From positions 32,001 through 96,000 of the IMG/VR virus record IMGVR_UViG_3300042309_002578: 64,000 bases of DNA; one strand, 5' to 3'. The notes under the pieces are model-generated. The model ran no database searches. It was not told the origin of the DNA and worked only from the letters and a program-made list of their open reading frames with translations. The translations under genes were made by a program, and so were the position numbers. The number at the start of each line of letters is the position of its first letter. Within the stretch, counting starts at the first letter, position 1. Shown here one piece after another: positions 6,627 to 62,438 of the stretch. Origin of the DNA: a virus.

Positions 6627-6955
6627 TTTTTTGTCCTTTTATCGTTATTTAGTAAAGCTCACTTCCATTTTTAATTTGTTGTGAGGCTTCATAATCTGGA
6701 ACTCCTTGCGTCCAGAAAACCATAAAATCTCGCACGTTTTGTTTTTGATTTCCTTGCTCTATAATACTGTGGTCAACAAATAAAGTCAAGCGACTGGGAA
6801 AATAAAATAATAAAATTGTTCGCAGATTTAAATATATAATATAAATAATTCCCCGTGAATTTACAAATCTCAATATTGGATTAATGTCAGGAGTTTTGGT
6901 ATGTTGGAATCTACATCAAGACTTTTGGCATTTTTTAAATCAAAAATAAAATTAT

Positions 6956-9882: not shown

Positions 9883-9965
9883 ACCAATCAATCAAGTAAT
9901 GCAGTAAAAGCTTAATTACTGCATTAAAAAATAAAACAAGGGTTGACTTTTGTTGTTAGCCGTAG

Positions 9966-10860
9966 ATTTGTACTCACACCACGTCAACGCCCAGCACCAT
10001 CGGTAAAAAAGCCCGACGGATGCCACCCTTGGCGACAAAAACATATTGTAATCCCCGCACAGCAAGGGTTTCGTGTTTTTGGCAATATTCCCCCGCAGCC
10101 GTCCCCCAAGCCGCAAACCAACCATTTGCACCAACGCCCTAACAACGCCCGTGCCACCAGCTAAAAACCTAAAATCTGCCCAGTCTTGGCGATAAAAACA
10201 TATTGCAATATCCGCACAGCAAGGGTTTTGTGTTTTTAGCGATCGCTCCCCCGCAGCCGTCCCCCAAGCCGCAAACCAACCATTTGCACCAATGCCCTAA
10301 CAACGCCCGTGCCACCAGCTAAAAACCTAAAATCTGTCCAGCCTTGGCGACAAAAAACATATTGCAATATCCGCACAGCAAGGGTTTTGTGTTTTTAGCG
10401 ATCGCTCCCCCGCAGCCGTCCTCAAAGTCATAAACCAACCATTTGCACCAACACCCTGACAACGCCCGTGCCACCAGCTAAAAACCTAAAATCTGTCCAG
10501 CCTTGGCGACAAAAAACATATTGCAATATCCGCACAGCAAGGGTTTTGTGTTTTGGCAATATTCCCCCGCAGCCGTCTCCAAACCGGCAAAACAGACATT
10601 CGTTCTCAGCCTGGACTAACGTCGATAAAATCAAAATCTTGTAACACGCCTCAAACCCGCATTCTCTCGTTAAAAAATCTGTGGCGGATTATAACATAAG
10701 GTGTGTCAAAAGTAAAGGGAAGATACAAAGAAAAAAGGGCAGTTTCCTATAAGAAAGTGATCATCTTCCCAATTTTATTTTTGATTAAAATCAAAAAATT
10801 ATGCAAGTACGCACCTATATCCAAAATTTCTGTAATACGTTTGTAATATAAAAATAAATC
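9966..10860. repeat. Repeat-array element copy A: ~4 units of 157-159 bp plus conserved leader
   Basis: CATATTG anchors at 10042, 10199, 10358, 10517; leader ~10575-10860 nearly identical to copies C and F. Confidence 0.95.
10688..10716 (-). promoter_or_regulatory. Sigma70-type promoter in leader pointing into the repeat array
   Basis: Minus strand TTTACT-17-TATAAT with TG extension; equivalents at 12488-12517, 22159-22187, 40446-40474(+), 49630-49658, 61600-61629. Confidence 0.7.
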
Positions 10861-10870
10861 AAAAATGCGC

Positions 10871-10899
10871 TTGACTTTATTTGTTAACCATAGTAATAT
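10871..10899 (+). promoter_or_regulatory. Conserved phage promoter family TTGACTTTnTTTGTTRRCCRYAGTAWTAT
   Basis: TTGACT-17-TAATAT with GTTAACC in spacer; at least 13 related copies precede small-gene clusters. Confidence 0.8.
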
Positions 10900-11520
10900 A
10901 TATTCAGTAAAGAAAAACAAAATACAAAACAAGCGAGAAAAAGATGACTAAGCCATTTGCAAATCTGGAAACCACCGAAAAGAACCACACTGCCGAGTAT
11001 GGAATCCGAATTAAATCTATAGTAATGTGGGAAATAAGGACGGAAATTTTGTTTGTGTATGTAGCTGGAGTTGCAGAACCAGTAGCTTTTTATGTTAACG
11101 AGTCTGTCGAGCTAATAGCCGAACTTAGGAAACAAAGCGAAGACTTTAGACCTCAAAAGTAGGCAGCAATTAAGCAATACAATAACTAATGAGTTACTGT
11201 ATTGCTTACTAAACAAAGAGATAAATACTCAAACCAAAAAACAAACAAAAATGGAACTAATTTCAATCAAAAGAAAAAGCCCAACTAATGATTTTGTTTC
11301 CGATTTATTAGACTGCTTGAATGGCTACACGCCATTTACATTTTATGCTGCTAATGATCAATGCGTTAAGCAAGGAATGAATCAGCTTGGTTTCCAGAAT
11401 TTATTAAAGAGAGCAATTCCGTTTTTGTTCCATACGAAGCTGGGACTGGCAAGTATGACGATTTCTTCTGGTCTGATTGGAAATAAAAACAGCGGTTAAA
11501 TTTATTTTTTAGCCGTAGCA

Positions 11521-12000: not shown

Positions 12001-12144
12001 AATAAAGTTTGGTTTAAAACATAAAATAATCAACTATCACACGCTACTTTTGTGTTTATAGTTGACAAACTTTAAACACAAAAAACAAGCAAAATGAAAT
12101 TATCAAAACAACAAACAAAGCTGCATTCACAGGCAGAAGTTGGG

Positions 12145-12670
12145 GTTTTTTGTCGGTAGAACATATTGCAATCTAGCCACAGCAAGGCTTTTGTGTTTTA
12201 GCGATATTTCCCCCGCAGCCGCACCAAAATTATAAAACGAGCATTTGTACTCACACCACGTCAACGCCCAGCACCATCGGCAAAAAAGCCCGACGGATGC
12301 CCAGTCTTGTTACAAAAACATATTGTAATCCCCACATAACAAGGCTTCTGTCTTTGGGTCGGCTGCGGGGAGACATTCCCAAAATCATAAAGCGGATATT
12401 CGTTCCCAGTTTTGGATAATGCCCCATAAAACTAAAATCTTGTAACACGCCTCAAACCCCTATTTTACTGTTAAAAATTTGGGGCGGATTATATCATAGT
12501 GAGCGTACCAAAGTCAAGGGAAGATGTGAAATAAAAATGGCATTTCCTTAAAGAAACAATGCACATCTTCCCAAATATTTTTTCCTTTTTTATAAAAATA
12601 TTATGCAAGTACGCACCTAGATAAAAAACCTGTAATACGCCTGTAATATACAAAATGATTTTCAAATACC
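12145..12670. repeat. Repeat-array element copy B: ~2 diverged units plus leader
   Basis: Anchors at 12162 and 12319; leader with GGGAAGAT...ATCTTCCC; followed by promoter at 12673. Confidence 0.9.
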
Positions 12671-12743
12671 GCTTGACTTTATTTGTTAACCACAGTATTA
12701 TAAGTGAAGTAGAAAAAACAAAACACAAAACAAGCGAGAAAAA

Positions 12744-15916: not shown

Positions 15917-16046
15917 AAATTTGATTTAGCCGTGAATCTGTGGATTTAGCTTAAAGATCCACAGAAAAAATTAAAAAAATGTAGTTGACTTTCTTTGTTA
16001 ACCATAGTATTATACAAGAATAAAGAAAAAACAAAAATCAACTAAC

Positions 16047-18108: not shown

Positions 18109-18130
18109 TAATACCAGCCTAGGTTTAAAA

Positions 18131-18204
18131 CTCCCCCGGCACGACTCGAACGTGCGGCATCGAAATTAACAGTTTCGCGCTCTAACCAACTGAGCTACAG
18201 GGGA
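18131..18204 (-). tRNA. tRNA-Asn(GTT)
   Basis: Full cloverleaf TCCCCTG/CGGGGGA, anticodon arm CGAAA-CTGTTAA-TTTCG, T loop TTCGAGT; no encoded CCA. Confidence 0.92.
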
Positions 18205-18225
18205 ATGACTTCTAGCTAACTAGAA

Positions 18226-18296
18226 CGAGGCTAGGGAGGATCGAACTCCCAACTTAAGATCGACAATCTTAGGGTTTACCATTAACCTATAGCCCC
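18226..18296 (-). tRNA. tRNA-Asp(GTC)
   Basis: GGGGCTA/TAGCCTC acceptor, TAAGA-TTGTCGA-TCTTA anticodon arm, TTCGATC T loop. Confidence 0.85.
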
Positions 18297-18480
18297 TGTG
18301 CTTTCCCTTACACCACAAAGGATGCTAACGTTAAACTCCTAGTTGTTCAGGCATTGCTGCTAGGGTGAGAAAACTACCGGGCTTTATTCTGTTCACAGCT
18401 TTGCCATTCTGTGTCTACATTGGCTGCTGGCATGGAGCCACACAACTTCAGTGTAGTGCTGTTTTTCGTTATACGAGAAG

Positions 18481-18552
18481 TATCCCTGGAGAGGATCGAA
18501 CTCTCTTTGCTAGGATGAAAACCTAGTGAACTACCCAATGTTCGACAGGGAC
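18481..18552 (-). tRNA. tRNA-Glu(TTC)
   Basis: GTCCCTG/CAGGGAT acceptor, CTAGG-TTTTCAT-CCTAG anticodon arm, TTCGATC T loop. Confidence 0.85.
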
Positions 18553-20604: not shown

Positions 20605-21441
20605 ATGATAAAGCCATACAAATTGCCACAGGATTATATAAAATGGGCGAACTTTTTAGACCACTCAGACAAAATATCATTGTTGTCCGCACAAAAACCT
20701 TGCGATTTAACAAATGACATAAATGTTGGTAAAAACCTTGCTTACTTGTATGAAAAATGGTTTATCGGTTATCCAGTTTATTGTGTGCGCCGATCGCTAA
20801 TTGAAGAGATGTTAGAAACTGATGTTGGTGATAATATTTCGCTGTTTAAAAACATTGACTTGGGCGTACCAACGTATTTGCTATGTTTCCCAGAATCCAC
20901 AATAAAATCACCAGTGGGGAACGGATTTATTGACTATTTAATAGTTGATATAGTCGAAAATGATGTCAAGAACAGCGAAAACAACGAATACAAGTATTTA
21001 ATTTTTTGGGGGTGCTTCGACTCAAATAACACATTACTTTTTTCTGGTAAGGGCATCAGGTGGGATGGAACTATAAAGCGATCGCCATTTATTCTGTCAG
21101 GACTTGAAAAGGATGCAGCGTTTTTAGTTAGAAATATTGTTTTGCAGTCAATATTATTGTTGCAATATTATCCAGAGATCCAGCAAGAAATGAAAAGCCC
21201 GACACAATCAAGGGGATTTGGTATGGCAAAACCATCAGAATATAGATTTCCAAGATGGTTAGGCAACGAAAAAACCAACAACAGGATAACCGAGAGGGGA
21301 GAAGGACAAAAGGAAACGGCAAAAAAATCAAAGCACTATCGTTCGCATCATTGGAGATTGCAGCCCTGTGGGGAAGGAAGAAAAGATATTAAGCCAGTTC
21401 GAGTTAGAGGAGCGTGGGTCAATCCAGACTTTGAAGGTTAG
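20605..21441 (+). CDS. Conserved phage hypothetical protein
   Basis: C-terminal HYRSHHWRLQPCG...WVN motif seen in many phage proteins. Confidence 0.7.
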   Translation: MIKPYKLPQDYIKWANFLDHSDKISLLSAQKPCDLTNDINVGKNLAYLYEKWFIGYPVYCVRRSLIEEMLETDVGDNISLFKNIDLGVPTYLLCFPESTIKSPVGNGFIDYLIVDIVENDVKNSENNEYKYLIFWGCFDSNNTLLFSGKGIRWDGTIKRSPFILSGLEKDAAFLVRNIVLQSILLLQYYPEIQQEMKSPTQSRGFGMAKPSEYRFPRWLGNEKTNNRITERGEGQKETAKKSKHYRSHHWRLQPCGEGRKDIKPVRVRGAWVNPDFEG

Positions 21442-21511
21442 TAATAAGCAAGAATTACAAGCAGCACCATAAATTAATTTTATGGTGCTGCTTGTTTATG
21501 TCTTTTGGGAG

Positions 21512-22335
21512 AAAAACATATTGTAATCCCCGCACAGCAAGGGTTTTGTGTTTTGGTAATATTTCCCCCGCAGCCGACCCAAAACTATAAACCAAACATT
21601 TGCACCAACACCCTAACAACGCCCCGTGTCATCGGCTAGAAAACCTAAAATCTGCTCAACTTTGGTGGTAAAAACATATTGCAATCCCCGCACAGTAATG
21701 GTTTCAGCTTTTGGTAATATTTCCCGCAGCCGTCCCCCACAACCCAAACATTTGTACCAACGCCCTAACAACGCCCGTGCCACCGGCTTAAAAACCTAAA
21801 ATCTGTCCAGCCTTGGCGACAAAAAACATATTGCAATATCCGCACAGCAAGGGTTTTGTGTTTTTAGCGATCGCTCCCCGCAGCCGTCCCCCCCAAGCCG
21901 CAAACCAACCATTTGCACCAACGCCCTACTAACGCCCGTGCCACCGGACATAAAACCTAAAATCTGTCCAGCCTTGGCGATAAAAACATATTGCAATCTC
22001 CGCACAGCAAGGGTTTTGTGTTTTTAGCGATCGCTCCCCGCAGCCGTCTCCAAACCGGCAAAACAGACATTCGTTCCCAGCCTGGGCTAACGCCGATAAA
22101 ATCCCAATCTTGTAACACGCCTCAAACCCGCATTCTCTCGTTAAAAAATCTGTGGCGGATTATAACATAAGGTGTGTCAAAAGTAAAGGGAAGATGCAAA
22201 GAAAAAAGGGCATTTTCCTATAAGAAAGTGATCATCTTCCCAATTTTATTTTTGATTAAAATCAAAAAATTATGCAAGTACGCACCTATGTCTAAAATTC
22301 TTGTAATACGTCTGTAATACAAAAATAAATTAAAA
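21512..22335. repeat. Repeat-array element copy C: ~4 units plus leader
   Basis: Anchors at 21517, 21675, 21827, 21987; preceded by a long hairpin at ~21456-21496. Confidence 0.95.
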
Positions 22336-22781
22336 ATGCGCTTTACTTTATTGGTTGTCCGCAGTAATATATATTTAAGTAGAGAAAAGAAGAGGTTAGT
22401 AATGAAATCAGAAATAGAAAGGTGGTTTATTGGAACTTACGGAAAAGATAATCACAAGTATTACATGGTCAATAATTATGAAAACATTGATATATCCACT
22501 GAAGACGGTGATATTGAGCTAACATTGCCTAAAGACTTTCCAGTTAAGCATATACCAACGATTGTGAATGCTCATCTTAATGCTATTGAGTGCGGAATAG
22601 CTATAGGCAAAAAAATCCAAATAGATCACATCTCAAAGGTTTTGTTCGGATAAATACCAAAACTATAGTTAATAATTTTCGCTTGTTTTTGAAATATTAC
22701 AACAAACCCTATTGTGCTTTGTCTGTAAACAATGTATAATATATGAATCTGCAAAAACTATAAAAACACGCGAAAATACAA

Positions 22782-24602
22782 ATGTCAAACTCTAAAAGCA
22801 TTCAGACAACATTACCATTATTTGATTTAGCTTCAGAAACACAAAATGAGATTCCTGTTGTTGTTTCTGCTAAAGCCCCTGACCATAGGTTATTACATCT
22901 TTATCGGCTAAACTCTGGAACAGAAAATGTATCAACATATAGCGACAAATTTTGGCAGTTGCTAAACAATAGGGGTATTACTAATAAAGAACAATTTTAT
23001 TTGTTCGCTGATCCAGAAAAAACTCAGGTTGATAACCCCGAATTGCATTTTAAGGACTTAGCTACAGCAAAGGAATTAATCATAAACGCGATAAATAACA
23101 AAGAGAAGATTGCTATTGTCGGTGACTATGATGCGGATGGAATGACATCAACAGCACTTTTAATTAGGACATTTAGGAACTTAAATGCAGATATTAGTTA
23201 TCAAATCCCAGATCGCATAACTGAAGGTTACGCCATCAATCCGGCTATTGTTGAGAAATTGGCATTGGATGGAGTAAAACTGATTATCACGGTAGACAAC
23301 GGCATAACCTCTGTAACATCTGCCGACAAGTGCAAAGAACTGGGTGTAAAACTAATAATCACCGACCACCACGAAATTCCAGAAATTTTACCAAATGCCG
23401 ATGCGATCTTAAATCCTAGATTGCTGCCAGAGGATTCAATATATGAAAATTTAGCGGGTGTTGGTGTGGCATATATTCTGGCAGCAGCAGTTGCATTGGA
23501 TTTAGGAAAAAAGGATTTTATCGTTCAAGCAATCACCCTGGCCGCACTTGGCACTATTGCCGATATGGCCACATTGACTGGGATAAATCGTCGGTGGGTG
23601 CGGCGAGGGATGAAAAACATAGGTAATTGTGGTATCCCAGGCGTTGCGGCTCTAATTGCCCAGTCTCAAATCAGAAACAGTAATTCAGTCTCGACCGCTG
23701 ATATTGGTTTTAAAATCGCCCCAATGATCAATGCCATTGGTAGGATTGGCGATCCTAAAATTATTGTGGAATTACTAACCACGGACGATCCGCAAATTGC
23801 TAAGGAGTTGGCAATTAAGTGCGCGGCTTGCAACTATGAACGACAGATGTTGTCAAAAAGTACAACAGAACAGGCGATCGCCCAAGTTGAATTTAAATTC
23901 AAGCAAGCCTTAAAACAGGATAAAGTGCTTTTTCTGATTGCTGAAAATTGGCATCCTGGTGTTGTGGGACTGGTTGCTTCTAAGTTGGTCGAGAATTACG
24001 GTGTGCCAGCATTTGTGGGTGTGATAGTGGAAAAAGACGGGCAGAAACAGATAAAATTTTCTGCCAGAGGGATACCAGAATTTCCCGTTGGGGATGCAAT
24101 GAGAGCCAACAGCGATTTATTTATAAAATTTGGCGGACACCCACTCGCCGGTGGTGGTTCATTAAATTTTGACAACTATGATGCTTTGCGACAAGGATTA
24201 ATAAATTTTGCCAATGGGTGCATCAGAGAGGAAGACGTGAAACCTCTTTACAGGGTAGATACAGAGATAAACTTTGCAGAAATACCCCAGATTTTTGTCG
24301 AAAGCAAAATACTCGCACCTGTTGGCATTGGCAACCCTGAGCCTGTATTTTTAGCTAAAAATGTCAAGGTTGTCAAGCAAGAGTTAATGGGGAGAGATAA
24401 AACGCACGCCAGTATTACACTGTCCCAGGTTGTTGATGGTATATACCACGAAATCAGGTGCGTTGCGTGGAGCTATGCACGATATTTTCCGCTTCCAGAA
24501 ATGTTGGATGTTGTTTTTAAACTTGACGACAATTCTTACATGGGAAAAACCACAATCCAGCCACAAATTATTAGCCATTCAATATCAAAAAGTAGCTTAT
24601 AA
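22782..24602 (+). CDS. recJ: Single-stranded DNA exonuclease RecJ
   Basis: GDYDADG, TVDNG, TDHH, GTIADM, NAIGRI, HPGVVG, GGHPLAGG, PVGIGNPEP. Confidence 0.95.
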   Translation: MSNSKSIQTTLPLFDLASETQNEIPVVVSAKAPDHRLLHLYRLNSGTENVSTYSDKFWQLLNNRGITNKEQFYLFADPEKTQVDNPELHFKDLATAKELIINAINNKEKIAIVGDYDADGMTSTALLIRTFRNLNADISYQIPDRITEGYAINPAIVEKLALDGVKLIITVDNGITSVTSADKCKELGVKLIITDHHEIPEILPNADAILNPRLLPEDSIYENLAGVGVAYILAAAVALDLGKKDFIVQAITLAALGTIADMATLTGINRRWVRRGMKNIGNCGIPGVAALIAQSQIRNSNSVSTADIGFKIAPMINAIGRIGDPKIIVELLTTDDPQIAKELAIKCAACNYERQMLSKSTTEQAIAQVEFKFKQALKQDKVLFLIAENWHPGVVGLVASKLVENYGVPAFVGVIVEKDGQKQIKFSARGIPEFPVGDAMRANSDLFIKFGGHPLAGGGSLNFDNYDALRQGLINFANGCIREEDVKPLYRVDTEINFAEIPQIFVESKILAPVGIGNPEPVFLAKNVKVVKQELMGRDKTHASITLSQVVDGIYHEIRCVAWSYARYFPLPEMLDVVFKLDDNSYMGKTTIQPQIISHSISKSSL

Positions 24603-25372
24603 TTTTAAGTATTGAGATAAATTTGATAGGTATGAGAAAAAATTAGTTCTCATACCTATTTTTTAATTTGACATTGACGGCATTTTTTAGGGATTATCTC
24701 GTCGGATTTAAGATTTTGCTTCCCAGTGGACACAGCCAAATAATTCCCCCATCCAAGGTGGTGCAGCGAACCCATCACTATCTTCATAAAATAATTCTTC
24801 ACCAGAACAATTATTTGGCAAATTTCTGTCGGTGTTGTTATATTTTATTTTTGGATTACCACACGTAGCAAATCTGACATTATTAGACTCTATTGCGCTT
24901 TCACTTTCCCAATAATTACATTTAGAGCAAGTTTGATTCATGTCAAAATAAGTCTCATGAAATTAATATGTATATTATAAGATTTATGATTATAAAATAA
25001 CCAAAAATAATGCTTGACTTTATTTGTTAATCATAGTAATATTAATGTATAGAAAACAAACACAAAAACACCAAACAATGACAACTACAAAAACCCAGAA
25101 AACGCTAAATGTTTGCGAGTTGATTGATCTAGCAAAAAATAAGAACATAAAGGGTGTTATTCACAAAGAGGTTGATAGCTGTCATACCATTTTAGATATT
25201 AAACCTTAGATTGTGACATTTCAATACGAAGATGAGGTGTATAGCATTACCTTTATAGACCAGAAATTAAGATGGTTGGCGAAGATTCAGATGGAAAAAA
25301 GGAATTTTTTAGTGTTGACGGTGAATTTGCAGAACTATTAATAACAATTTTATTAAAAAATCCTCTAAAATT

Positions 25373-26353
25373 ATGCCTCTTAAACTCACTGATTGGGATC
25401 AAGATTTACCAATAAAGAAAGATGAAGAATACCAAGCCTTTATTCGTACACTTCAGTTTACAGACGGCTTTAGTATATTATTTGTGCGTTGTTCTCCTGC
25501 TGAAGGTGAACAATTAATTAGTCAAGTGAAAGCAGATATTCATGATCAAAATATAGAAGTTATCAAATTAGATAAAGATGTGACGAATTTATATGCAATA
25601 GTTGATAAATTGCCTAACAAAAACAATATCAATATATTATTTATTACAGGCTTAGAGTCTTCATTCTATAAATACGAAGAAGCCAAAACTTTAGCAGGTT
25701 GGAATAGTCGACAAACTCATCATTATAGTTGGGAAAGTGTACCACCGTTTTTAATTAATATCAACCAACAACGAGAACGGTTTAGAGATAGTTTTAATAT
25801 TTGTTTTGTATTTTTATTACCGCAGTTTGCAATTAAATATTTTATTCACCGCGCCCCCGATTTCTTTGATTGGCGTTCTGGTTTATTTGATTTTCTTTTA
25901 GATTCAAAAACTCTAGAACAAGAAGCTACAAGGATTATTCAAGAAGGAGCTTATGAGAAATATGCAAATTTAACCAATGAAGAAACAAATCAGAAAATCT
26001 TAGAAATTATAGATATTATTGAACATGAAATAGATAATGAACAAAAAGCTGAATTATTTTTTGAATTAGGTTATTTGCAAAGAGTTAGAAAAAATTATGA
26101 AGAAGCCATATCTTCCTACGACAAAGCTGTGGAATTTAAACCTGATTATCACCAAGCTTGGTACAGCCGGGGCATTTCCCTAGATGATTTAGGCAGGTAT
26201 GAAGAAGCCATATCTTCCTACGACAAAGCTGTGGAATTTAAACCTGATTTACACGAAGCTTGGTACAACCGGGGCATTTCCCTAGATGATTTAGGCAGGT
26301 ATGAAGAAGCCATATCTTCCTACGACAAAGCTGTGGAATTTAAACCTGATTAA
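25373..26353 (+). CDS. Cyanobacterial-type TPR protein, truncated
   Basis: N-terminal RAPDFFDWRSG domain; 102-bp TPR repeats at 26096, 26198, 26300; stop TAA where the previous repeat has TTA. Confidence 0.8.
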   Translation: MPLKLTDWDQDLPIKKDEEYQAFIRTLQFTDGFSILFVRCSPAEGEQLISQVKADIHDQNIEVIKLDKDVTNLYAIVDKLPNKNNINILFITGLESSFYKYEEAKTLAGWNSRQTHHYSWESVPPFLININQQRERFRDSFNICFVFLLPQFAIKYFIHRAPDFFDWRSGLFDFLLDSKTLEQEATRIIQEGAYEKYANLTNEETNQKILEIIDIIEHEIDNEQKAELFFELGYLQRVRKNYEEAISSYDKAVEFKPDYHQAWYSRGISLDDLGRYEEAISSYDKAVEFKPDLHEAWYNRGISLDDLGRYEEAISSYDKAVEFKPD

Positions 26354-27169
26354 CACGAAGCTTGGCAAAGACAATTAAATAGCCAAGGCGAATATGCAGC
26401 ACAACAGGTGATAAACAAGCTGCAACAAAAACAATAATCGCGCTTTTTAATAATATTTAGCCAAGATAGTGCTATTATTATATCACACAATCATTCATTT
26501 ACATAGAGAATAAAATGGAAACCGAAGAGAAGCAGTATTACATAGAGAATAAAATGGAAACCGAAGAGAGGCAGTATGGTCGCGTAACAGTTGATGATGT
26601 TAGTGACACTATTTTACTTTTAAAGAGATTGAGTAATCAACATGGGATATCACTTGATCAAACAATTGCGATCGCAGCCCTCCTGGAACAAGCTAGATCC
26701 AATGATATAGCGATCGCCACAACTATTGATCAATAAGCTTTCACCAAACAACAACACTAAATAATGGAAGGTAAAAACATGAGTTTAACCACAGAAGAAA
26801 ATACGGTATACCAATCTTTGAAAGACTCCTTGTGTGTGTAAGGTGGGTTTTTAGTTTTACATAACACAGCGGGAGAAAGCTACGAACTGAATATGTTGTG
26901 CAGCAGAAACTTTATGGAGTCAGCTAAGGTTTAGATGTCAAAGAAGATAACCATATTGTCTTGTCTTTGCAAAAAGTAAAATCATATTTTAGCAAAAAAG
27001 GATTGAAAATATAGCGTCGGCTAAAGTTGTCGCTGATGCTGCTAAAAACCGATTGATAAAGGTGTCGTAAAAATATTTAGCCAAAGTAGTAACTTTTATC
27101 TAAATATTTTTACGATGTAGATTGCGCCCCAGATAATATTGTGATAATATTTGTATATCTAAATAAATA

Positions 27170-29281: not shown

Positions 29282-29354
29282 GCAGGATTGGCCGAGAGGT
29301 TAAGGCAACAAACTCATAATTTGTGGTAGACAGGTTCGATTCCTGTATCCTGTA
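29282..29354 (+). tRNA. tRNA with CAT anticodon, probably tRNA-Ile2 (lysidine)
   Basis: GCAGGAT/ATCCTGT acceptor, GGCCGAG..GGC D arm, ACAAA-CTCATAA-TTTGT; resembles cyanobacterial/plastid trnI-CAU and lacks the initiator GGG/CCC stem. Confidence 0.85.
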
Positions 29355-40157: not shown

Positions 40158-40299
40158 TGCTGGTTGGCAGCACAGTATTTTCAGCTGGTCCGCATTTGCA
40201 CTGGGAAACATATAGAGGGAGTTGGGGCAAACCCTAATAAAACCCAGCGACATTGGGTACAGTTTGCCCAGACCAACTGGACCAGCTTACGGCGCGTGA
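40158..40299 (+). pseudogene. Inverted, diverged duplicate of the 3' end of the 1249-aa tail hydrolase gene
   Basis: Aligns to the reverse complement of 42700-42842 (LVGST..GPHLHWETYRG..TLIKPSDIGY) with a 1-nt deletion. Confidence 0.9.
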
Positions 40300-40877
40300 A
40301 CAAATTATTTTTATATTACAACCGTGTTACAAGAATTTTAGATATAGGTGCGTACTTGCACAACATATTGATTAAACCCAAAAATAAAGTTGGGAAGACG
40401 ATCACTCTTTATAAGGAAACTGCCATTTTTTCTTTGCATCTTCCCTTTACTTTTGACACACCTTGTGTTATACTCCGCTTTCGGTTTCATCACGAGAGAA
40501 TGAGGGTTTGCGGCGTGTTACAAGATTGGGTTTTGGCGGTATTAGACCAAGCCGAAAACAAATGTCCGTTTGGCAGTTTTGGGGGACGGCTGCGGGGGAA
40601 TATTGCCAAAAACTGAAACCCTTGCTACGTGGGGATTGCAATATGTTTTTGCCACCAAAGTTAGAGCAGACTTTGGGCTTTTAGCCGGTGGCACGGGCGT
40701 TAACGAGGTGTTGGTACAAATGTCCGTTTTATGATTTTGGGGATGGCTGCGGGGGAATATTGCTAAAAACACAAAACCATTGCTGTGTGGGGATTGCAAT
40801 ATGTTTTTGCCACCAAAGTTAGAGCAGACTTTGGGCTTTTAGCCGGTGGCACGGGCGTTAACGAGGTGTTGGTACAA
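40300..40877. repeat. Repeat-array element copy D (inverted orientation)
   Basis: Reverse-complement leader 40300-40570; CAATATG anchors at 40639 and 40797. Confidence 0.92.
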
Positions 40878-40989
40878 TTGGGGCGATAGATACTGGGGAA
40901 GAGATACAGATGGCAATGGGGAAAACCATCTTGGTAAGCTTTTGATGAAACTGCGCGAAGAGTATAGGAACGATAATCCTGTAGCTTAA
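40876..40989 (+). pseudogene. NADAR (YbiA-like) C-terminal fragment
   Basis: NWGDRYWGRDTDGNGENHLGKLLMKLREE*; fused directly to the array end. Confidence 0.8.
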
Positions 40990-41876
40990 GAATATTGATC
41001 AAATAAATTGCAAAAGATAACTATATTGCAATTTATTTGATCAATATTAATTCTATTAAAACCAATATTTGCACTATTTTTAGCGCGAAATAACAAACGG
41101 GAGATCAAAAATATATTTTGATTTTTGCTTGACTTTTTTAGTTATCCAGAGTAATATAAATATAGAGAAAAACAGTATAACAACAAAACAATGGCTAACG
41201 GAATATTCGACAAAAAGAGTATAAATTTTGAACTGATTGATGGACTTCCTGACGATCACGGCACTTATTTGTTCTTATTTGAAGATGGAACAATAAGAGA
41301 GGGATATTATAGCTCTTTCCCCCATCCAGATTGTGAGAAAGGAACGGTTAAATGGTGCGACAAAGAAAACGAGTGGTTTTATTACGAAATCGCTGTGGGT
41401 TGGTTCAAGCGTATTGAATAAAGTGGTTTGTTTAAGCGTATTGAATAAATCCAAGTTAGTTGATGCTGCTAAAAACGGTCGGCTAATAAACGTTTTTCAC
41501 TGCCAAGAAGTTAAAGAAGTTGGAGGTATTTATGTCACAAAAAAAACCTGTATTTGTAGGTGTTTTTAATCCAAACATTGGTGAAAGGTACATTAACTTA
41601 AGTCAAGTAATTGCATGGACTTTGGATGATTCAAAGTTACTGGTTACGTTACCAGGTACTTATTCTCAAAATGAGGAAGGTCAGGGAGACTGTGAATTTC
41701 TCTATTTCAGAGATACAGATATGGGGTTTGATGCTTTAGTTGAAAGGCTCAAATCTATGTCAGAAAAACTTTGGGAGGAGTAGTTGTAGTATGTGACGGG
41801 TTTGGGAATACTGGGGTAATTGTCAAAATAGACAAAACTCCAGTAGTAAGAGAAATGGCTGTTACTGACAATCAAA

Positions 41877-42467
41877 GTGATGTATTTTCGTGGAGTGCTG
41901 GGTATGAACAATAAATTGCTGGTTTCGCTCTTAGTTTTAAGCTCTTGTTTTGGTGAAGTTACACAAGAAAGTTTTGCAGTACCATCAGGATTAGATCCAA
42001 TATTAAATTTAAACGCAGTTAGAGACGGTAAAAAAATACTTTATTGTGAGCCTGACCGTGATTTTTCTAGCTGTTTTGTGTTTAACAAAACCAAAAACAA
42101 TGTAGTTGGTTTATTCTTTATGCCTGGGAATTTTAATTACAGTACCTGTTTTTACGGTCAAATCTCTAAAAAATATTCAAACATTTTAGTCGGGACTGGA
42201 TATGAAGAAGCTGAGTACGAAGAATTATTCTCTAGGAACACTTTTAAGCCAAGCATTCAGTCAGATCGATTAAAATTTAGCTATAAAAAATTTGTTATTG
42301 ACAAAACAAGAAAAAAGGTAAAATTTCTCGGTGCTACAATTAATTTCGATGCTTGGGATTCGGATCGGAGACTAAAAGAAACGCCAAGCGACTCGTATTT
42401 TTACAAAAAGAATAACTTGAAAGACTTGACTCCAGATCCAATTAATTGCTCAAAAATAAAATTTTAG
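41877..42467 (+). CDS. Secreted/lipoprotein-like hypothetical protein (likely start 41904)
   Basis: MNNKLLVSLLVLSSC signal/lipobox-like N-terminus. Confidence 0.55.
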   Translation: MMYFRGVLGMNNKLLVSLLVLSSCFGEVTQESFAVPSGLDPILNLNAVRDGKKILYCEPDRDFSSCFVFNKTKNNVVGLFFMPGNFNYSTCFYGQISKKYSNILVGTGYEEAEYEELFSRNTFKPSIQSDRLKFSYKKFVIDKTRKKVKFLGATINFDAWDSDRRLKETPSDSYFYKKNNLKDLTPDPINCSKIKF

Positions 42468-42469
42468 GA

Positions 42470-42698
42470 TTAAACAAATATTGTAATCCTCGCGCAGCAA
42501 GGCTTTTGTGTTTTAGCGATCGCTCCCCGCAGCCGTCTCCCCACCATAAACCAAATATTTGTACCAGCACCCTATCAACGCCTCGCACCATCGGTAAAAT
42601 CGACCTCCCTTTATTTTTTATTAAATAAAATATATTGTGCAAATACGCACCTGTATTAAAAAATCCCGTAATACAGGTGTAATACGAAAAATAATTTG
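42470..42698. repeat. Repeat-array element copy E (one unit joined to the last ~90 bp of leader)
   Basis: Unit motif CAGCAAGGCTTTTGTGTTTTAGCGATCGCTCCCCGCAGCCG, then leader end TACGCACCT...GTAATAC. Confidence 0.85.
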
Positions 42699-42699
42699 C

Positions 42700-45600
42700 T
42701 CACACACCGAAAGGTGCTTTAGGTGGTCTGGGCAGCCTGTACCCAATATCGCTGGGTTTTATTAGGGTTTGCCCCAACCCCCCTCTATATGTTTCCCAGT
42801 GCAAATGCGGTCCATTTGAAAGTCCTGTGCTGCCAACCAGCATTAAAGTTTGCCCTTTGGTTACTTGCTGTCCAGCCCTGACCTTGAAGCTTCCATTCCG
42901 CCCATGACTAAATGTCATAAATACAGTTTCACCTGTGTTTGGGAGTTTTAGAGCGATCGCCACCTGATTTCCATATCCGCCAATAAACTTGGTGTAAATC
43001 ACAGTCGCATTGCCTGGTGCAACTATCGGTGAACCATTTCTAGCACCAATGTCTACACCTTTGTGCATCCTTCTAACGCCTGTAACTGGATGTACCCTGT
43101 CGCCTATCCCGCTAGTTGTTGGTCCGTCTGCTGGCAAAATCAGTGAATTATTGCCAGCAGACGAAGCTTTAGGCGTGGCTTTAGGCGTGGCTTTAGGATT
43201 AATGGCATCACCTAGTGTTTGTCCTTGTATATCAGTAATTTTTGTATTCTGTACAAGATTGGGCGTTTCTGGTTCATTCATTAATGGGATATAGAATCGG
43301 ATCTTTGTCCGACCATCTTTAAAGCTGTGGCTTATCTCCTCGATTCTTAATTCAGTTGCAAACTCTTGATTAAATATTCTTGGTGATAGGGCAATTATCT
43401 CTCCAGGAACTAACAACAATGTGTCTTTCACTGTTCGCAAAGTTAAGCTTCCTTCATATCCCTTAATTCTAGAGTTTTCATTTAATAAAACATCTTGTTC
43501 TGCACCACCGTCAATTAAATCAATTGCTCCGGGGGCTACTTTGGGTAATCCGGTCGCATCATTTATATCTATTCCTGCATTTAAAGTTCCTATATTTATG
43601 CTTGAAGATAGATTTCTTGTTGTAAATATCTCATTGTTTGTTTTTTGGTTTTGGATTTTTTCTGAAAATGTAGCACCATTTTTATCTGTTTCTTCTGTTT
43701 CAATTATTGTTATTCCATCTGTGTAAGTTGTTGTAGTTTTCTTAATAGTTTTTTCTATTGCAGTCCCCATTGTGATTGTTGTCGTTTTTGTCTCAACATC
43801 TGTTATTTTCAGATACTCTTTTGTGCGTTGAGTTCTGTTTTCAACATTAACAGTTGTATTATTTGGTCTTGTAAATGTTTTTGATGTAACTTTTTCTGGC
43901 TCAACAATTTTTGACTCTCTTGGGGCTTTCTTCTGCTTGTCTAGTGCTTGACTTAATTGATTTAATTTAACAATACCAACTTTGGGTGCTGATTTGTTTG
44001 GTTTTATTATCCCACCAGAAGGTGGTGCAGACTTACCTGTAACACCGTTTGACATTGCTCCAGTCTTGTTTTCTACATTATGTTGATCAACAACACCTGT
44101 TTGTCTATTTATTGAAACCTTGTTACTTGCTCCATTCTGCTCTAATTGCGACTCCAAAACGCCTGGGATATATCTTGGTGACGCTGTTGCCTTATCTGAA
44201 AAATTGCAGCTTATAAAAAGCTCTTCATCTACAACAAATCCGGTAAACTTTGGTCTGGCATAAGGTTCAATAATTAGCTCATTTGACCTTGGGCTATCGC
44301 TGATTTTGAATCCAATTCTTCGCGCTTCTCTTTCTAAAACTTGATATACAGTCTGACCATCTTGCGGTAAATAATGGTATGACAAACCTTGCCCTTCCAT
44401 AACTAATTTAAGGTTATATTCTTCTGCAACTCTTTGTGCAAATTCTCTAAGGGTTATATTTTGAAAGCTTTGTGTTTGGGGTATTCTTGATAATTTCCAT
44501 CGCACTGACTTGCCAGAGAACGACGTTTTTTCAACACCATACTCCTTGGAGCAACTGGCTTCTGTGTGGATAAAATGAAAAGCAATTAACTGCGTAAAAC
44601 TATTAGAGCCGACCATCATTTCAATAATTAATTCAGTCCCTTTTCTGGTATCTTCCTCTGGCTGTGCCGAAGTTTTCAGTCTTTTTGTATCGTCAGAGTT
44701 TTTAGTCCCCTGCATAGTTTTCGCAAACTGCTTTAATCCCGATTTTGATTTATTTTCGGCATTTGGTGTTATTGGTGTTATTGAGCTTAATGCTTTGACA
44801 ATCCTTTGTGCATAGGGCAATAAAGCCTGTTTTAATGCTGTAAAATTATTATTCGCCACACCGCTTACAACTAAGTTTGTGAGATTGCTATTCAGTGCAT
44901 CAATTTCTAAAATTGTTAAACCTTTTGCAATAGAGCCAAGTTTCTCGTCTGGAAATCTGCGGATATCTTTCCCTGCCAGTCCCCAATAAAAACTAAAAAA
45001 ACCGAATTCTTTGGCTAGGGCTACATCCATCTCGCTCAAACTTTTACCACTTACATCGTATTTTGAGCCAGCAATAACGCCTGGTTTCCCACCACCTGGC
45101 TGGTCAAAATGCAACTCAAGAGAATATGCGCCTGTTGATTCTTTTAGTTGTTGCACACTTGTGGTGTATGCTTTCCTGGCATTATCGCCTCTTGCTGACG
45201 GTAATGGTGGTGGTGCGATTACTGTAAATCCGGCTTTTGTTAATTCGGAGCTTACCACCTGTGCTGCAATCTCAGTGGCAACAGACTCCTTTGTTCTGGT
45301 TTCGCCACCATAATTTACCGAGGTGTTGGTTGTTCCGCTTGTTCCGCTATTAATATCAAGCCGATGCCCAGATGTGACAATTATTTTCTTTGTTGCTGCA
45401 ACTTTTGGATATGGCCAATCACCAACCTTGGATTGATTTACTGTAGTTTTGGGTGAGGCATTTTTTGCCGCTGCTTTTACTCCCCCACCTTCACTTGATG
45501 CAGACTTGATCAGTTCATCAACATTGCTTAATTGCTGTCCGCGAATCTTCTCAAAACCTCCTCCGGCTCTATAAATCCTGACAGCTTCCATGTACTGTTT

Positions 45601-47827: not shown

Positions 47828-48071
47828 GGCGTTTATTCTGCAAAAGTAACGCTTGACCTTGTTTGTTAGCCGTAGTAATATTAAAATACAGAAAACAAAA
47901 AACCACGACTAAGACTTTTACAATCCTCAGAGGCTTTACAGGCAATGGCAAATTAGTACATAGAACATATAAAAAAGCTATCTAAACATTTGTAAGGGTA
48001 GCTTTTTATATGCTTGACTTTTTTTGTTAGCTACAGTAATATGTTTAAAAAACCAATAAAAAAAGGCAACA

Positions 48072-48611: not shown

Positions 48612-48679
48612 TACTTTCGCTTATTTAATATAAAAACAGGGATGCCAATACACACTAGCATCCCTGTTTTTATATTAAA

Positions 48680-49805
48680 TAACATATTGCAATCCCCACA
48701 CAACAAGGGTTTCGTGTTTTTGGCAATATTCCCCGCAGCCGTTCCCCCCAAGCCGCAAACCAACCATTTGCACCAACGCCCTAACAACGCCCGTGCCACC
48801 GGCTAAAAACCTAAAATCTGCCCAGTCTTGTCGGTAAAAACATATTGCAATCCCCGCACAGCAAGGGTTTCGTGTTTTTGGCAATATTCCCCCGCAGCCG
48901 TTCCCCCAAGCCGCAAACCAACCATTTGCACCAACGCCCTAACAACGCCCGTGCCACCAGCTAAAAACCTAAAATCTGCCCAGTCTTGTCGGTAAAAACA
49001 TATTGCAATCCCCGCACAGCAAGGGTTTCGTGTTTTTGGCAATATTCCCCCGCAGCCGTTCCCCCCAAGCCGCAAACCAACCATTTGCACCAACGCCCTA
49101 ACAACGCCCGTGCCACCGGCTTAAAAACCTAAAATCTGTCCAGCCTTGGCGACAAAAAACATATTGCAATCCCCGCACAGCAAGGGTTTCGTGTTTTTGG
49201 CAATATTCCCCCGCAGCCGTCCCCAAAATCCACGAACCAAACATTTGTACCAACACCCCACTAACACCCGTGCCACCGGCTAAAAACCCAAAATCTGCCC
49301 TAGCTTTGTCGGTAAAAACATATTGCAATCCCTATGTAGCAAGGACTTTGTGTTTTTGGCAATATTCCCCCGCAGCCGTCCCATTTGTACCAACACCTCA
49401 CTAACACCCGTGCCACCGGCTAAAAAACCTAAAATCTGCACCAACTTTGGTGACAAAACATATTGCAATCCCCGCGCAGTAAGGCTTCCAGCTTTGTCGG
49501 TATTTCCCCCGCAGCCGTCTCCAAACCGGCAAAACAGACATTCATTCCCAGCCTGGACTAACGCCGATAAAATCAAAATCTTGTAACACGCCTCAAACCC
49601 GCATTCTCTCGTTAAAAAATCTGTGGCGGATTATAACATAAGGTGTGTCAAAAGTAAAGGGAAGATACAAAGAAAAAAGGGCAATTTCCTATAAGAAAGT
49701 GATCATCTTCCCAATTTTATTTTTGATTAAAATCAAAAAATTATGCAAGTACGCACCTATGTCTAAAATTCTTGTAATACGTTTGTAATATAAAAATGAT
49801 TTTGA
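48680..49805. repeat. Repeat-array element copy F: 6 units plus leader
   Basis: Anchors at 48683, 48841, 48999, 49160, 49319, 49459; promoter 49814 follows. Confidence 0.95.
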
Positions 49806-49879
49806 AAGCAGGGTTGACTTTATTTGTTAACCATAGCAATATATATTCAGTAAAGAAAAACAAAAAAGCGAAGAAAAAC

Positions 49880-54026: not shown

Positions 54027-55469
54027 AGAAGGTACTGGTTGACGCGATAGAAATTCTTGCACAAGAAGAAAAAAGCCGAGTGCAAGAATTATACCTCAGT
54101 GCCTTGGTTTATGTAACTGTCGCGTTTTTACAGGCAGAAGAACAAAGAAAAAAGGAGATGATACAGATGATACCTATGATTGCAGCTTTACTAGAAAACT
54201 TTGAAAATGATCCGATAGAAACAGGCAAGAACCTCTATGCCGCTGGTTTTTTTGCTGGTGCGATACTGTTTGGTGCTGCCGTTGGTAGTCCAATGGTTTT
54301 GCCAGTAGTATCCTGTGTTTCGCTTGCTTTGGGTATTGCGACTTTTATGGATAATCACAGACGTTAAAAGCAATTCTCGGTTTTATAGAGAACAAAATTT
54401 ATGTCACACGCAACAGAGAACGACTCGCCACAAATTTTAATTGTCCCGAAAGAAGTGGGCGGACTATCAATGCCAATCTTATGTTTCCTAGTTGGGACGC
54501 TTAGTTTTGCGCTGCTTGCTAATGCGGTAACAAGTTTTAAAATGGCACAGCAGCAACAAAAAGATGCAAGCCCAACGGATGGTGTGCAGCAAGAATTAAC
54601 AGCAAAAAGATTGCCAATACGCGGGCATATTCGTGCAAAACGATACAGAAAACAAATTAAATAAAAACCTCGCATTATTTTAAATAAAAATCAACACTTA
54701 GTGCCAAAATTTGACGGGAATAGACTGATTGAATCAAAATTAATAACTTTTATTGATTTTGTTGATTTAGCGTTAATTAATAGTCGCATTAAATCAGATT
54801 TGCTAGAAATAATCAGTTTGCAAAACTATAAACAGCAGAATTAGTTGACTTTGTCTGTTAGCCATAGTATTATATATTTAATTCAGTAATTTAAAAAGAC
54901 TATGGCTATTGATTTTAATGCTTTGACAAGAGAGTTGGAGGACAAGAAAGGCAGATGTTTGATTCCCACAACATTCTATGATTGGGTTAGTGGATACAGA
55001 GTTGATTGCATAACCGACGAAAGAACTCCGGTGAAAGTCTACTATTTAATAGAAGAAGGGGCGCATGGTTACTCTATCAAGTTTTTAAATGGTGTAACTG
55101 GATTTGAATCCTATTATGTCCATGATTTGTTAGCGAACAAGCAAGATCATCCTACGGGTTATTGGGCTGCTTGTTCGCTAACAATAGGAAGATGGGACGG
55201 TCTATACGTTGACGCAAAACAGGTAGATGAAAAACTCAGAAAATTACCATTTGATGTCAATACACAACAATAACTAAGTGCGACAGATTTTATTGTAAAA
55301 TCTGTCGCACTTAGGTAAAATTACATAGAATAATCTCAGGTAACAAACCCATTCCTTATGTCAACATTTCATAATACCATATTTCGCAGAAACTTGTTAC
55401 AAAAGATTCTTGACATCTATGTGTTAGCTGTAGTATTATATATTAATATGTGTAGCACAATTAAAAACA

Positions 55470-59014: not shown

Positions 59015-59472
59015 GATTTAGCCTAAAATGTTATTGCAATATTGATGCTATATTAACATTGTTTGTGGTAAAATGTGTTAACAAGTATCAAGAAATTTAA
59101 AGCCATGCAGTTAAGTACAGAAAAAATAAATACCCAAGAAACAAAGCCAGAAGTTGAGGCAATTTTACATTCAAGCGAATGGGTAAAACCAGAGGACAAG
59201 CTCCCGCAACCTTATGAGTTTGTTTTAGTAATGATAGCAGAATGCAATATTCCAATATATTGCCTCTATCAATGCGACGATTTTTATGTTGTCAGTGTGT
59301 CGCTGGTTCGCAATAATGTGAATACAAGAATTAAACTTCTAAAAAAAGAAGTCTTGGTGTGGCGAGGAAATCTTGGAATAAAACTTCCACAATAAAATCA
59401 AAAACTGGTTGACTTTTGTGGTTAACCAATGTAATATAGATATATAGACAAAAACCACAAACACAAAAAACA

Positions 59473-61594: not shown

Positions 61595-61720
61595 TACATA
61601 TAATACCATAAAGTGGGTACAAAAGTCAAGGGAAGATACAAAGAAAAAAGGGTAGTTTCCTGTAAGAAAGTGATCATCTTCCCAGCTTTATTTTTCAGTG
61701 AAATTATAAATGTATTACAA
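61595..61720. repeat. Repeat-element copy G (leader only, degenerate)
   Basis: AAAAGTCAAGGGAAGATACAAAGAAAAAAGGGTAGTTTCCTGTAAGAAAGTGATCATCTTCCC. Confidence 0.85.
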
Positions 61721-62438
61721 GCACCCTCTTATTATGGCTATTGCAACGGAGGCGCATTTGTTGAAAGAAAGGAAAGATGGTGGGAAGGTGATAGTTTAGC
61801 GATCTAACAAAGAAATTGTGGAGATTTTATTCCGATAGCTTGGTAAGCGTAAAACTCAGTGGATAAAGCCACTGAGAGTGTCAATTCCTCGTTCGCACCC
61901 TGATGCAAACAATAATGATCCGAACAACTTCAAAAGGTGCTAATTAGAGCTTTTGTGTAACCAAAGTGGCGATCGCCACATTAGCTAAAACCTAAAAGGA
62001 TCAATACCGGGGTTGGAGTAGAGCAAGAAAGCTGCTTGAGCAGCACGGAAAAGACGCAGACAATTTTGCTTATGAATTCCAAATAAGTGAAATAAAGCTA
62101 ATGCAGCTTGACGGTGGCTTTGCAGTTCCTATGTTCGCTCTAAATGGAGTGTCAGGCTACAGACTGGTAATTAAGAATGATCTGCCAACCGTAATGTCTA
62201 ATTATTTTCAATTCGCCATAGAAGAGGACGAGTTGAAGGTCAGAGAATGGGCAGAATCTAACTACAAGAAACTATTCGACTGTGCCAGCATGGGTGACAT
62301 TTCCCGACTAGTAGAATCAACTCCCAAGCTGAAGAAAAAAGTTAGGAGTGGTTTAATATGCAATAATTTTAGTTGACTTTTTTGTTGACCATAGTATTAT
62401 AGATATATAGACAAAAACCAAAAACAAAAAAGAAAACA

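Follow-up and report, generated by a model that had tools for sequence, protein, structure and literature searches.

The stretch of DNA analysed here, a 64,000-nt window covering bases 32001-96000 of the IMG/VR virus record IMGVR_UViG_3300042309_002578, carries at positions 9966-10899 a tandem array of ~158-bp units joined to a leader of ~290 bp with two divergent predicted promoters, the whole set between a helicase gene and a group of small genes. It is one copy of an element that occupies ten loci on the 138-kb contig of the source phage, with 21 full or partial units, and that has additional copies on metagenome pieces; each copy holds 0-6 tandem units of ~158 bp, and arrays and leaders together account for ~3% of this compact genome. 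These copies make up a genuine and organised family of non-coding DNA that has not been described before. The phage that carries it is uncultured and of ecological relevance, and each of its genomes would hold roughly a dozen or more such loci. Coordinates below refer to the window unless they are marked "genome" or given with the L number of a contig, and the copies found in the window are laid out as follows.

9966-10634, minus strand (the direction of the inward promoter): array A, with a partial unit at 9966-10003 and units A1-A4 at 10004-10160, 10161-10318, 10319-10477 and 10478-10634
10590-10870, no strand assigned: core of leader A, holding the predicted initial transcribed region (10636-10680), the inward promoter Pin, an inverted repeat and, to the right of the latter, an AT-rich stretch, TGCAAGTACGCACC and two copies of TGTAATA
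10688-10716, minus strand: Pin of copy A, TTTACT-17-TATAAT with a TG-extended -10 box and a predicted start near 10680-10682
10871-10899, plus strand: outward promoter Pout of copy A, TTGACT-17-TAATAT, the predicted promoter of the small genes from 10944
12123-12742, minus strand: copy B, with two degenerate units (12123-12279 and 12282-12434, the second with an internal inversion of ~50 bp), leader 12392-12742, Pin 12517-12488 and Pout 12673-12701
21478-22389, minus strand: copy C, with units C1-C4 (21478-22105), leader 22062-22389 and Pin 22187-22159; recJ starts at 22782
40291-40881, plus strand: copy D, inverted, with leader 40291-40570, two units and a partial third (40528-40881), a rightward Pin and no outward promoter
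42462-42721, minus strand: copy E, degenerate, with one unit (42462-42593) and, of the leader, only the distal half (42600-42721), both Pin and the inverted repeat having been lost by deletion
48644-49867, minus strand: copy F, with units F1-F6 (48644-49576), leader 49533-49867 and Pin 49658-49630, followed by the outward promoter
61596-61732, minus strand: unit-less Pin cassette, with the inverted repeat and a leftward TTGACT-18-TATTAT with TG

The original prediction, made from the letters of the window and largely right in its description, had listed seven loci, all of which were recovered in unit and leader searches with nhmmer; three further ones lie outside the window, at 11.7, 26.4 and 116 kb of the genome. 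A single-unit query gave 21 matches in the 138,383-bp genome (E 8e-7 to 7e-45), 19 of them within the window (four in A, two in B, four in C, two in D, one in E and six in F), and a profile built from eleven units returned identical loci plus two extra fragments; a two-block unit pattern matched the window 18 times versus 0 times in 100 shuffles. Tandem Repeats Finder reported periods of 159 bp at 10023-10591 (3.6 copies, 90% matches), 160 bp at 21505-22048 (3.5 copies, 81% matches), 158 bp in reversed orientation at 40558-40877 (2.0 copies, 91% matches) and 158 bp at 48676-49379 (4.4 copies, 91% matches). For the leader, nhmmer found seven near-full copies in the genome, five of them in the window (10591-10944, 12392-12742, 22062-22389, 40291-40570 on the minus strand, and 49533-49867), and three partial ones (42600-42721, 61596-61732 and genome 26407-26541).

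The leader consists of two promoter/stem-loop cassettes placed back to back and joined by a conserved block of ~150 bp. The first promoter, Pin, points into the array and is conserved, as had been proposed: promoter scans called it at A, C and F (TTTACT-17-TATAAT) and at B (TTGACT-18-TATAAT), in all four with TG before the -10 box, and its -10 region (TATAAT, TATACT or TATTAT) can be aligned in 12 of 13 copies, the two unit-less ones included, having been lost only in E. The boxes agree with the promoter consensus at 9-11 of 12 positions and are predicted to be sigma-70-like, and the Pin cassette is present at nine genome loci and in three metagenome copies. The first ~45 bases predicted to be transcribed are nearly invariant among the aligned copies, which argues for constraint on more than the promoter boxes themselves; inside the inner units, the promoter scans detected no further promoters. 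The Pin -35 box lies within the left arm of an inverted repeat with arms of ~20 bp (10705-10724 and 10762-10785, z -3.7), of which the GGGAAGAT/ATCTTCCC pair noticed earlier (10717-10724 and 10763-10770) proves to be the core and whose conserved loop holds the imperfect palindrome TTTCCTATAAGAAA. The TGTAATA direct repeat is likewise present as described, at 10831 and 10842 and thus 11 bp apart, and TTGTAAY motifs recur in the leader as well as in the units.

At two sites, 61596-61732 and genome 26407-26541, Pin and its inverted repeat stand without units. At the latter, ~170 nt follow the cassette and run into a strong hairpin that, with its T-run, resembles a terminator. This stretch (L020 6407-6700, equal to genome 26407-26700), which also contains another extended -10 box and lies just downstream of the gene for a 1393-aa replication helicase, could encode a small RNA.

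The other cassette carries the early-type promoter Pout (TTGACT-17-TAATAT), which points outward in 7 of the 11 aligned copies that reach that end of the leader and whose motif recurs at at least 15 other sites of the genome. The family keeps a conserved spacer, stands before small genes and resembles the promoter-early stem-loops (PeSLs) discussed below; more of its members lie outside the window, and those within it are these.

6737-6792 (minus strand), 10868-10930, 12673-12701, 15966-16036, 24994-25078, 41127-41191, 47850-47901, 48012-48042, 54845-54878, 59395-59468 and 62373-62429: members of the Pout motif family

Ten neighbouring small proteins matched no Pfam or PHROG family, and no paralogy was detected among the first genes behind the Pout copies. 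At the opposite end of the element, folding of the far ends of A, C and F bore out the three hairpins proposed there.

9897-9926, plus strand: far-end hairpin of array A, with an 11-bp stem, -13 kcal/mol and z -3.9, just past the stop of the helicase gene (9882)
21457-21495, plus strand: far-end hairpin of array C, with a 17-bp stem and z -7.4, terminator-like for the upstream gene 20605-21441
48621-48681, plus strand: far-end hairpin of array F, with a 25-bp stem, -32.2 kcal/mol and z -10.7, its right arm overlapping the start of unit F1

Their T-runs lie on the plus strand, which suggests that they terminate the upstream genes and not the transcript from Pin.

Within the arrays, the inner units measure 158-159 bp, a period close to 15 helical turns, and contain the well-kept blocks AACATATTGYAAT, CAGCAAGG, TTTTGTGTTTT, CCCGCAGCCG, CATTYG and AACGCCCGTGCCACC, the ~35-bp junction between units being more variable than these. 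The leader-adjacent unit has a distinct 3' half of its own, and the farthest unit begins ~10 bp ahead of AAAAACATATTG. Each unit also shows a loose internal duplication (TTGCAAT-CCCCGCACAGC and TGGCAATATT-CCCCCGCAGC, ~38 bp apart); part of the units carry a short palindrome of 8-12 bp (ATTGCAAT / ATATTGCAATAT) with a second GCAAT motif ~38 bp beyond it, some have a HIP1 palindrome at the position held by GGCAATATTCC in others, and some contain G5-N8-G5 clusters. The nested inverted repeats that had been ascribed to every unit proved weak: AAAAACA and TGTTTTT do pair, but the ATATTGC/GCAATAT pair crosses them instead of being nested, and ATCCC/GGGTT is complementary only at CCC/GGG. The strong C/G strand skew is there, with a GC skew of -0.28 to -0.37 on the plus strand (C-rich) and an AT skew of +0.09 to +0.19, and the orientation of the units relative to Pin is constant in every unit-bearing copy.

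No reading frame is shared from unit to unit, in keeping with the earlier reading of the letters, and protein coding was rejected: plus- and minus-strand open reading frames (ORFs) of different units run in different frames. RNAalifold gave 19 distinct units a consensus of -2.95 kcal/mol on the plus and -10.1 kcal/mol on the minus strand with no gain from covariation, and ten copies of the Pin 5' region one of -12.2 kcal/mol with no conserved fold, and the 679-nt array A is no more stable than its shuffles in either direction (z -0.02 in that of Pin, +1.35 in the opposite one). Rfam returned no match at gathering score and, up to E 10, only three chance-level matches to the leader. With no covariation, weak consensus folds and z-scores of this kind, a processed structured small RNA, one of the products first suggested for the arrays, is unlikely. 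A clustered regularly interspaced short palindromic repeat (CRISPR) array was rejected as well, as the units abut head to tail with no unique spacers, a point already made in the original prediction, and no cas genes were found among the scanned phage proteins. The AT-rich, promoter-bearing leader at one end of direct repeats and the leader-adjacent unit that differs from the inner ones do recall a CRISPR locus, whereas the missing spacers, the length of the units (158 bp versus about 30-40 bp) and the lack of a stable RNA hairpin in the unit set the element apart.

Words of 10480-11500 are present in seven RNA-library runs from three studies, and contigs were compared for four metatranscriptome runs of one study, as assembled contigs that carry no strand information. 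In these four libraries we find contigs that contain array units and promoter-proximal leader: one matches perfectly from inside the array to 10640, ~40 nt within the predicted start, another matches the far end of array A, and the downstream genes are covered from 10931 or 10933, where contigs start in two of the runs. No contig of the four runs lies over 10753-10917, between the two promoters, a gap that carries no evidential weight. Word depth is 2.6-2.9 in the array contigs versus 5-9 in the neighbouring early genes, contig depth being a poor measure. With array and leader present in these RNA-library contigs, the leader-to-array transcription unit that had been proposed is plausible, its strand and start being predicted ones.

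We propose, tentatively, that the element is cis-acting and coupled to transcription, its R-loop-prone arrays being sites of replication or recombination that double as insulators before early-gene cassettes; the start of transcription, the formation of R-loops and the origin, recombination and insulator roles are what we infer from the features above. Pin would drive RNA polymerase into an array with a G-rich non-template strand, and the product would be an unstructured G/U-rich RNA, prone to remain hybridised to the C-rich template as an R-loop. Such hybrids would then mark the array loci as places where replication or recombination of the phage DNA begins. Read-through into the downstream early-gene cassette would also be kept out by convergent transcription and the inverted repeat, and at A, C and F the upstream gene's terminator hairpin closes off the array. 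This proposal is ranked first because the promoter is conserved and dedicated to the array, the start of the transcribed region is under constraint, and the G-skewed array keeps a fixed orientation to Pin. The units, moreover, neither code nor fold, which suggests that what matters is the DNA itself or its being transcribed, and not a folded product. The energetics of RNA:DNA hybrids relative to the duplex, computed with nearest-neighbour parameters, moderately favour the Pin direction, the value being better than in the opposite direction in all five arrays tested. Among genome windows, A, C, D and F rank within the best 1-5% and B, which is degenerate, within the best 13%, a result that is suggestive, not outstanding.

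Several observations weigh against the proposal. The hybrid energy is no outlier, many coding stretches being equal to it, the G content of the non-template strand is merely 31-34%, and the second G-run is not conserved between units. The arrays are GC-richer than the genome and not easily melted, with no AT-rich unwinding element, and the cumulative GC skew tracks gene orientation and gives no signal at the arrays. The best-conserved blocks, AACATATTGYAAT, CAGCAAGG, CCCGCAGCCG and CATTYG, look like sequence-specific sites, not mere composition, and copy number and integrity vary, with B and E degenerate, as they do in dispensable DNA. Since the nearest phages have no homologous or analogous arrays, the element would be young and its conservation inseparable from recent copying. 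One variant-copy RNA-library contig (10564-10741) extends to ~60 nt upstream of the predicted start, and the RNA-library contigs are compatible with a carry-over of DNA.

With replication genes of its own (DnaE, clamp loader, RecJ, SF2 helicases and the 1393-aa protein), the phage must have its own origins. Of these genes, three lie outside the window and are placed as follows.

L020 6732-10913 (minus strand); L021 2139-5864 and 6668-8104: genes for DnaE, the DnaX-type clamp loader and the 1393-aa superfamily 2 (SF2) protein

The clamp loader is fused to DUF4326, and the 1393-aa protein matches the Pfam family Herpes_ori_bp at 34.4 bits (cut-off 20) as well as a PHROG named 'replication'. Transcription-primed origins are familiar from T4 oriF and oriG (a middle promoter with an unwinding element), from RNA II of ColE1 and from herpesvirus oriLyt with its G-rich repeat transcripts. 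The phage element would resemble them in having a promoter that leads into DNA with a G-rich non-template strand, at multiple sites, in a genome with its own replisome genes and a Herpes_ori_bp match. It differs from them in that no easily melted AT-rich element lies downstream of Pin, in its tandem 158-bp units, which are not a known feature of T4 or ColE1 origins, and in that the helicase beside copy A is not shown to be UvsW; the "UvsW-like" label given to it at first is unsupported, its closest solved relative being RadD. That the element is a phage counterpart of the repeat origins or enhancers of the baculovirus homologous region (hr) and oriLyt type, a dozen promoter-fed, G-skewed arrays whose hybrids would prime or license replication and recombination through the DnaE replisome and the origin-binding-protein-like helicase, is a more specific idea that we consider rather improbable as it stands.

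Ranking close behind the transcription-coupled element, and hardly less conjectural a possibility, is an account in which only the PeSL-like leader is selected, for early transcription, for stopping read-through and as homology for shuffling, the units being a neutral or mildly selfish passenger expansion homogenised by unequal crossing-over and gene conversion. In the accessible portions of PMC2839356 (Arbiol et al. 2010) and PMC4122927 (Comeau et al. 2014), the PeSLs of T4-type phages are described as dispersed cassettes of a sigma-70-type promoter and a stem-loop before small genes, in which the stem-loop can overlap the -35 box and which are tied to rearrangements between close strains. 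The two promoter/stem-loop cassettes of the leader fit this description: Pin and Pout are predicted to be strong sigma-70-like promoters with many copies in the genome, both also occur alone (Pin at the two unit-less sites, Pout in at least 15 further copies), and the ~20-bp-arm inverted repeat holds the Pin -35 box, a layout found in the accessible part of PMC2839356. The copies precede small genes of no known family, the number of units runs from 0 to 6 with B and E degenerate, the similarity among leaders fits gene conversion, and copy D, which forms an inverted pair with E, is rearranged in a near-identical strain (86% alike). By their sequence, then, the leaders appear to share two of the three PeSL features compared, but the whole module does not, as Pin leads into 0.6-6 non-coding 158-bp units and not directly into a small gene. 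The PeSLs described in the accessible text are moreover short promoter/stem-loop motifs with neither a tandem array nor a long conserved block between divergent promoters, the sequences are unrelated, and the source phage is not T4-type by the few genes tested. A passenger origin of the units also leaves unexplained their strong strand skew and fixed orientation to Pin, the conserved blocks within otherwise diverged units, and why a compact genome, in many of the assemblies, would retain ~3.5 kb of passenger DNA spread over numerous loci.

That the arrays act in trans is in our view unlikely. In this account Pin would yield an unstructured RNA, rich in G and U and n x 158 nt long, that is delimited by the far-end hairpin and serves as a sponge or decoy for an RNA-binding protein of host or phage or for a small RNA. 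Such an RNA would account for the conservation of the promoter and of the 5' transcribed region, for conserved blocks repeated in each unit and for the presence of the array in RNA libraries; the hairpins that close A, C and F could fix or protect its 3' end, and the Pin at genome 26407-26541, with its ~170 nt and terminator-like hairpin, resembles a small RNA unit. Yet neither an RNA family match nor a conserved fold was found, no partner is known, and the depth of the array contigs (2.6-2.9, versus 5-9 in early genes) is low despite ~20 units that could contribute to it, and the plus-strand T-runs of the far-end hairpins suggest that these are terminators of upstream genes.

Baculovirus hrs are built of shorter units, each centred on an imperfect palindrome of ~30 bp that is bound by IE-1, and are not known to have a dedicated promoter-bearing leader aimed into the array. 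They are the nearest analogue for an array of protein-binding sites that would act independently of transcription, as an enhancer of Pout, a partition or condensation site or a packaging signal, a role that we regard as doubtful at best. Hrs and the phage element share several dispersed intergenic loci in a large double-stranded DNA virus, variable numbers of tandem units, short palindromes, lineage-specific sequence and an association with rearrangement sites. Protein binding would also suit the conserved short blocks, among them the ATTGCAAT / ATATTGCAATAT palindrome with its second GCAAT ~38 bp on, the TTGTAAY motifs of leader and units, the period of 158-159 bp or ~15 helical turns, and the imperfect palindrome in the loop of the leader inverted repeat. 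The two systems differ in the domain of their hosts and have no sequence relation, the palindrome is here 8-12 bp long and absent from some units, and an enhancer or origin role is here putative. The full 12-bp palindrome occurs only in some units and its second site is replaceable by the HIP1 palindrome, and the outward promoter is missing from 4 of the 11 aligned copies that extend far enough to show it. No candidate binding protein was found, the neighbouring small genes being without family, and a purely DNA-level role leaves the conserved inward promoter unexplained. A non-autonomous mobile element of the miniature inverted-repeat transposable element (MITE) type, a protein-coding repeat or an assembly artefact, which multi-copy intergenic DNA, contigs that often break at the arrays and 'proteins' predicted inside the arrays by gene callers might suggest, is very unlikely, as no terminal inverted repeats or target duplications were seen on reading the copy ends in the alignments, reading frames differ between units, and the element is present both in RNA-library contigs and in assemblies made independently from a number of sources. 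As for a host repeat or MITE, that candidate was rejected on a scan of 185,579 species genomes with only eight single chance matches, in unrelated taxa and with a best E of 0.74 to the unit profile.

The element matches no described family in Rfam, in phage and plasmid collections or in pattern scans of viral and genome contigs, which agrees with its initial description as a candidate undescribed system: blastn against the phage and plasmid collections gave no match, and scans of IMG/VR with three patterns gave nothing beyond one chance match. The literature searched holds nothing on such arrays in phages, nor does the accessible part of the paper on cyanophage CL131. Nine metagenome stretches bear the element, three of which are the source phage at 97.8-99.7% identity; the assemblies concerned are from fresh water, and some were binned with Aphanizomenon metagenome-assembled genomes (MAGs). 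The nearest other phages, with DnaE 40-44% identical, lack the element: it is absent from five DnaE-relative records, and 938,347 bases of retrieved loci gave no match to it either. A further comparison showed that three of the DnaE-relative records contain no comparable tandem repeats, only two unrelated 126-bp repeats in G003. On this sampling the element appears to be known from one phage species complex only. We had taken L010, L018, L017 and L013, the flanks of which are absent from the 138-kb contig, for a second, diverged phage, a candidate that was withdrawn: a 168,672-bp contig that encodes exact L017 proteins also bears an array pseudo-ORF, its helicase belongs to the same 90% cluster, and the four contigs are most simply the ~30 kb missing from the 138-kb contig. 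On this evidence, no conservation across lineages is shown.

Copies of the element differ within the genome and between strains. Leader cores A, C, F and Y are 96-99.5% alike, and B, D and Z are 70-89% alike to them (Z 88%, D 84% and B 75% similar to leader core A), a pattern that fits gene conversion among some loci. In the strain contig L011, 97.8% identical in the flanking genes, the D region is inverted and partly deleted, with a similarity of just 86% in the D units. Copies D and E are arranged as an inverted pair (40291-40881 and 42462-42881) around a 1.6-kb segment with small plus-strand genes, and their homology extends into a pseudo-copy of the 3' end of the gene for a 1249-aa tail lysin.

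genome 72040-72881 and 74462-74881: D/E region

The element would explain both assembly breaks and rearrangements at the array sites of the source phage.

That source is a linear viral contig of 138,383 bp with a completeness estimate of 83%, identified as phage by its genes for a large terminase, a head protease and a tail sheath; the full genome would be about 169 kb in size and the lineage that of an uncultured myovirus, for which the records of the protein collection include contigs longer than this one, up to 168,672 bp. Further phage-encoded proteins include a baseplate spike domain protein, an M23/GH19 tail lysin, RecJ, an SF2 helicase and an FtsK-like protein. No close cultured phage was found, the best match of the helicase in the phage collection being 31% identical, and a search of viral contigs for relatives of the helicase found none. 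The cyanobacterial HIP1 octamer GCGATCGC occurs 69 times genome-wide versus ~0.6 expected, and real and pseudo-proteins of the phage are found under the source names Aphanizomenon flos-aquae WA102, MDT14a, Anabaena sp. MDT14b and Aphanizomenon sp. MAGs. From this HIP1 excess and these names, the host is probably a cyanobacterium of the Aphanizomenon/Dolichospermum type.

Work on large phages mostly proceeds from gene to gene, and little is known of how their non-coding DNA is organised; here ~3% of the compact genome of a phage associated with bloom-forming Aphanizomenon goes to one ordered non-coding family with its own promoter. If the arrays are origins or recombination sites, they would be the first multi-origin layout of repeat arrays described for a phage and a convergent parallel to viruses of insects and to herpesviruses; if they yield a sponge RNA, this would be a new type of RNA for host takeover. 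A more modest reading is that the PeSL idea of mobile promoter/terminator cassettes extends beyond T4-type phages.

Other features of the source DNA were noted in passing. A tRNA cluster (Asn, Asp and Glu) lies at 18130-18552 on the minus strand and a tRNA-Met at 29282-29354 on the plus strand, and a 102-bp tandem repeat at 26096-26365 (2.6 copies, 97% matches), the printed consensus unit of which includes TAA, lies within the TPR-repeat gene 25373-26353. The terminus of the contig (genome 138215-138383) is a perfect 42-bp x 4 tandem repeat, which is the likely cause of the assembly break there.

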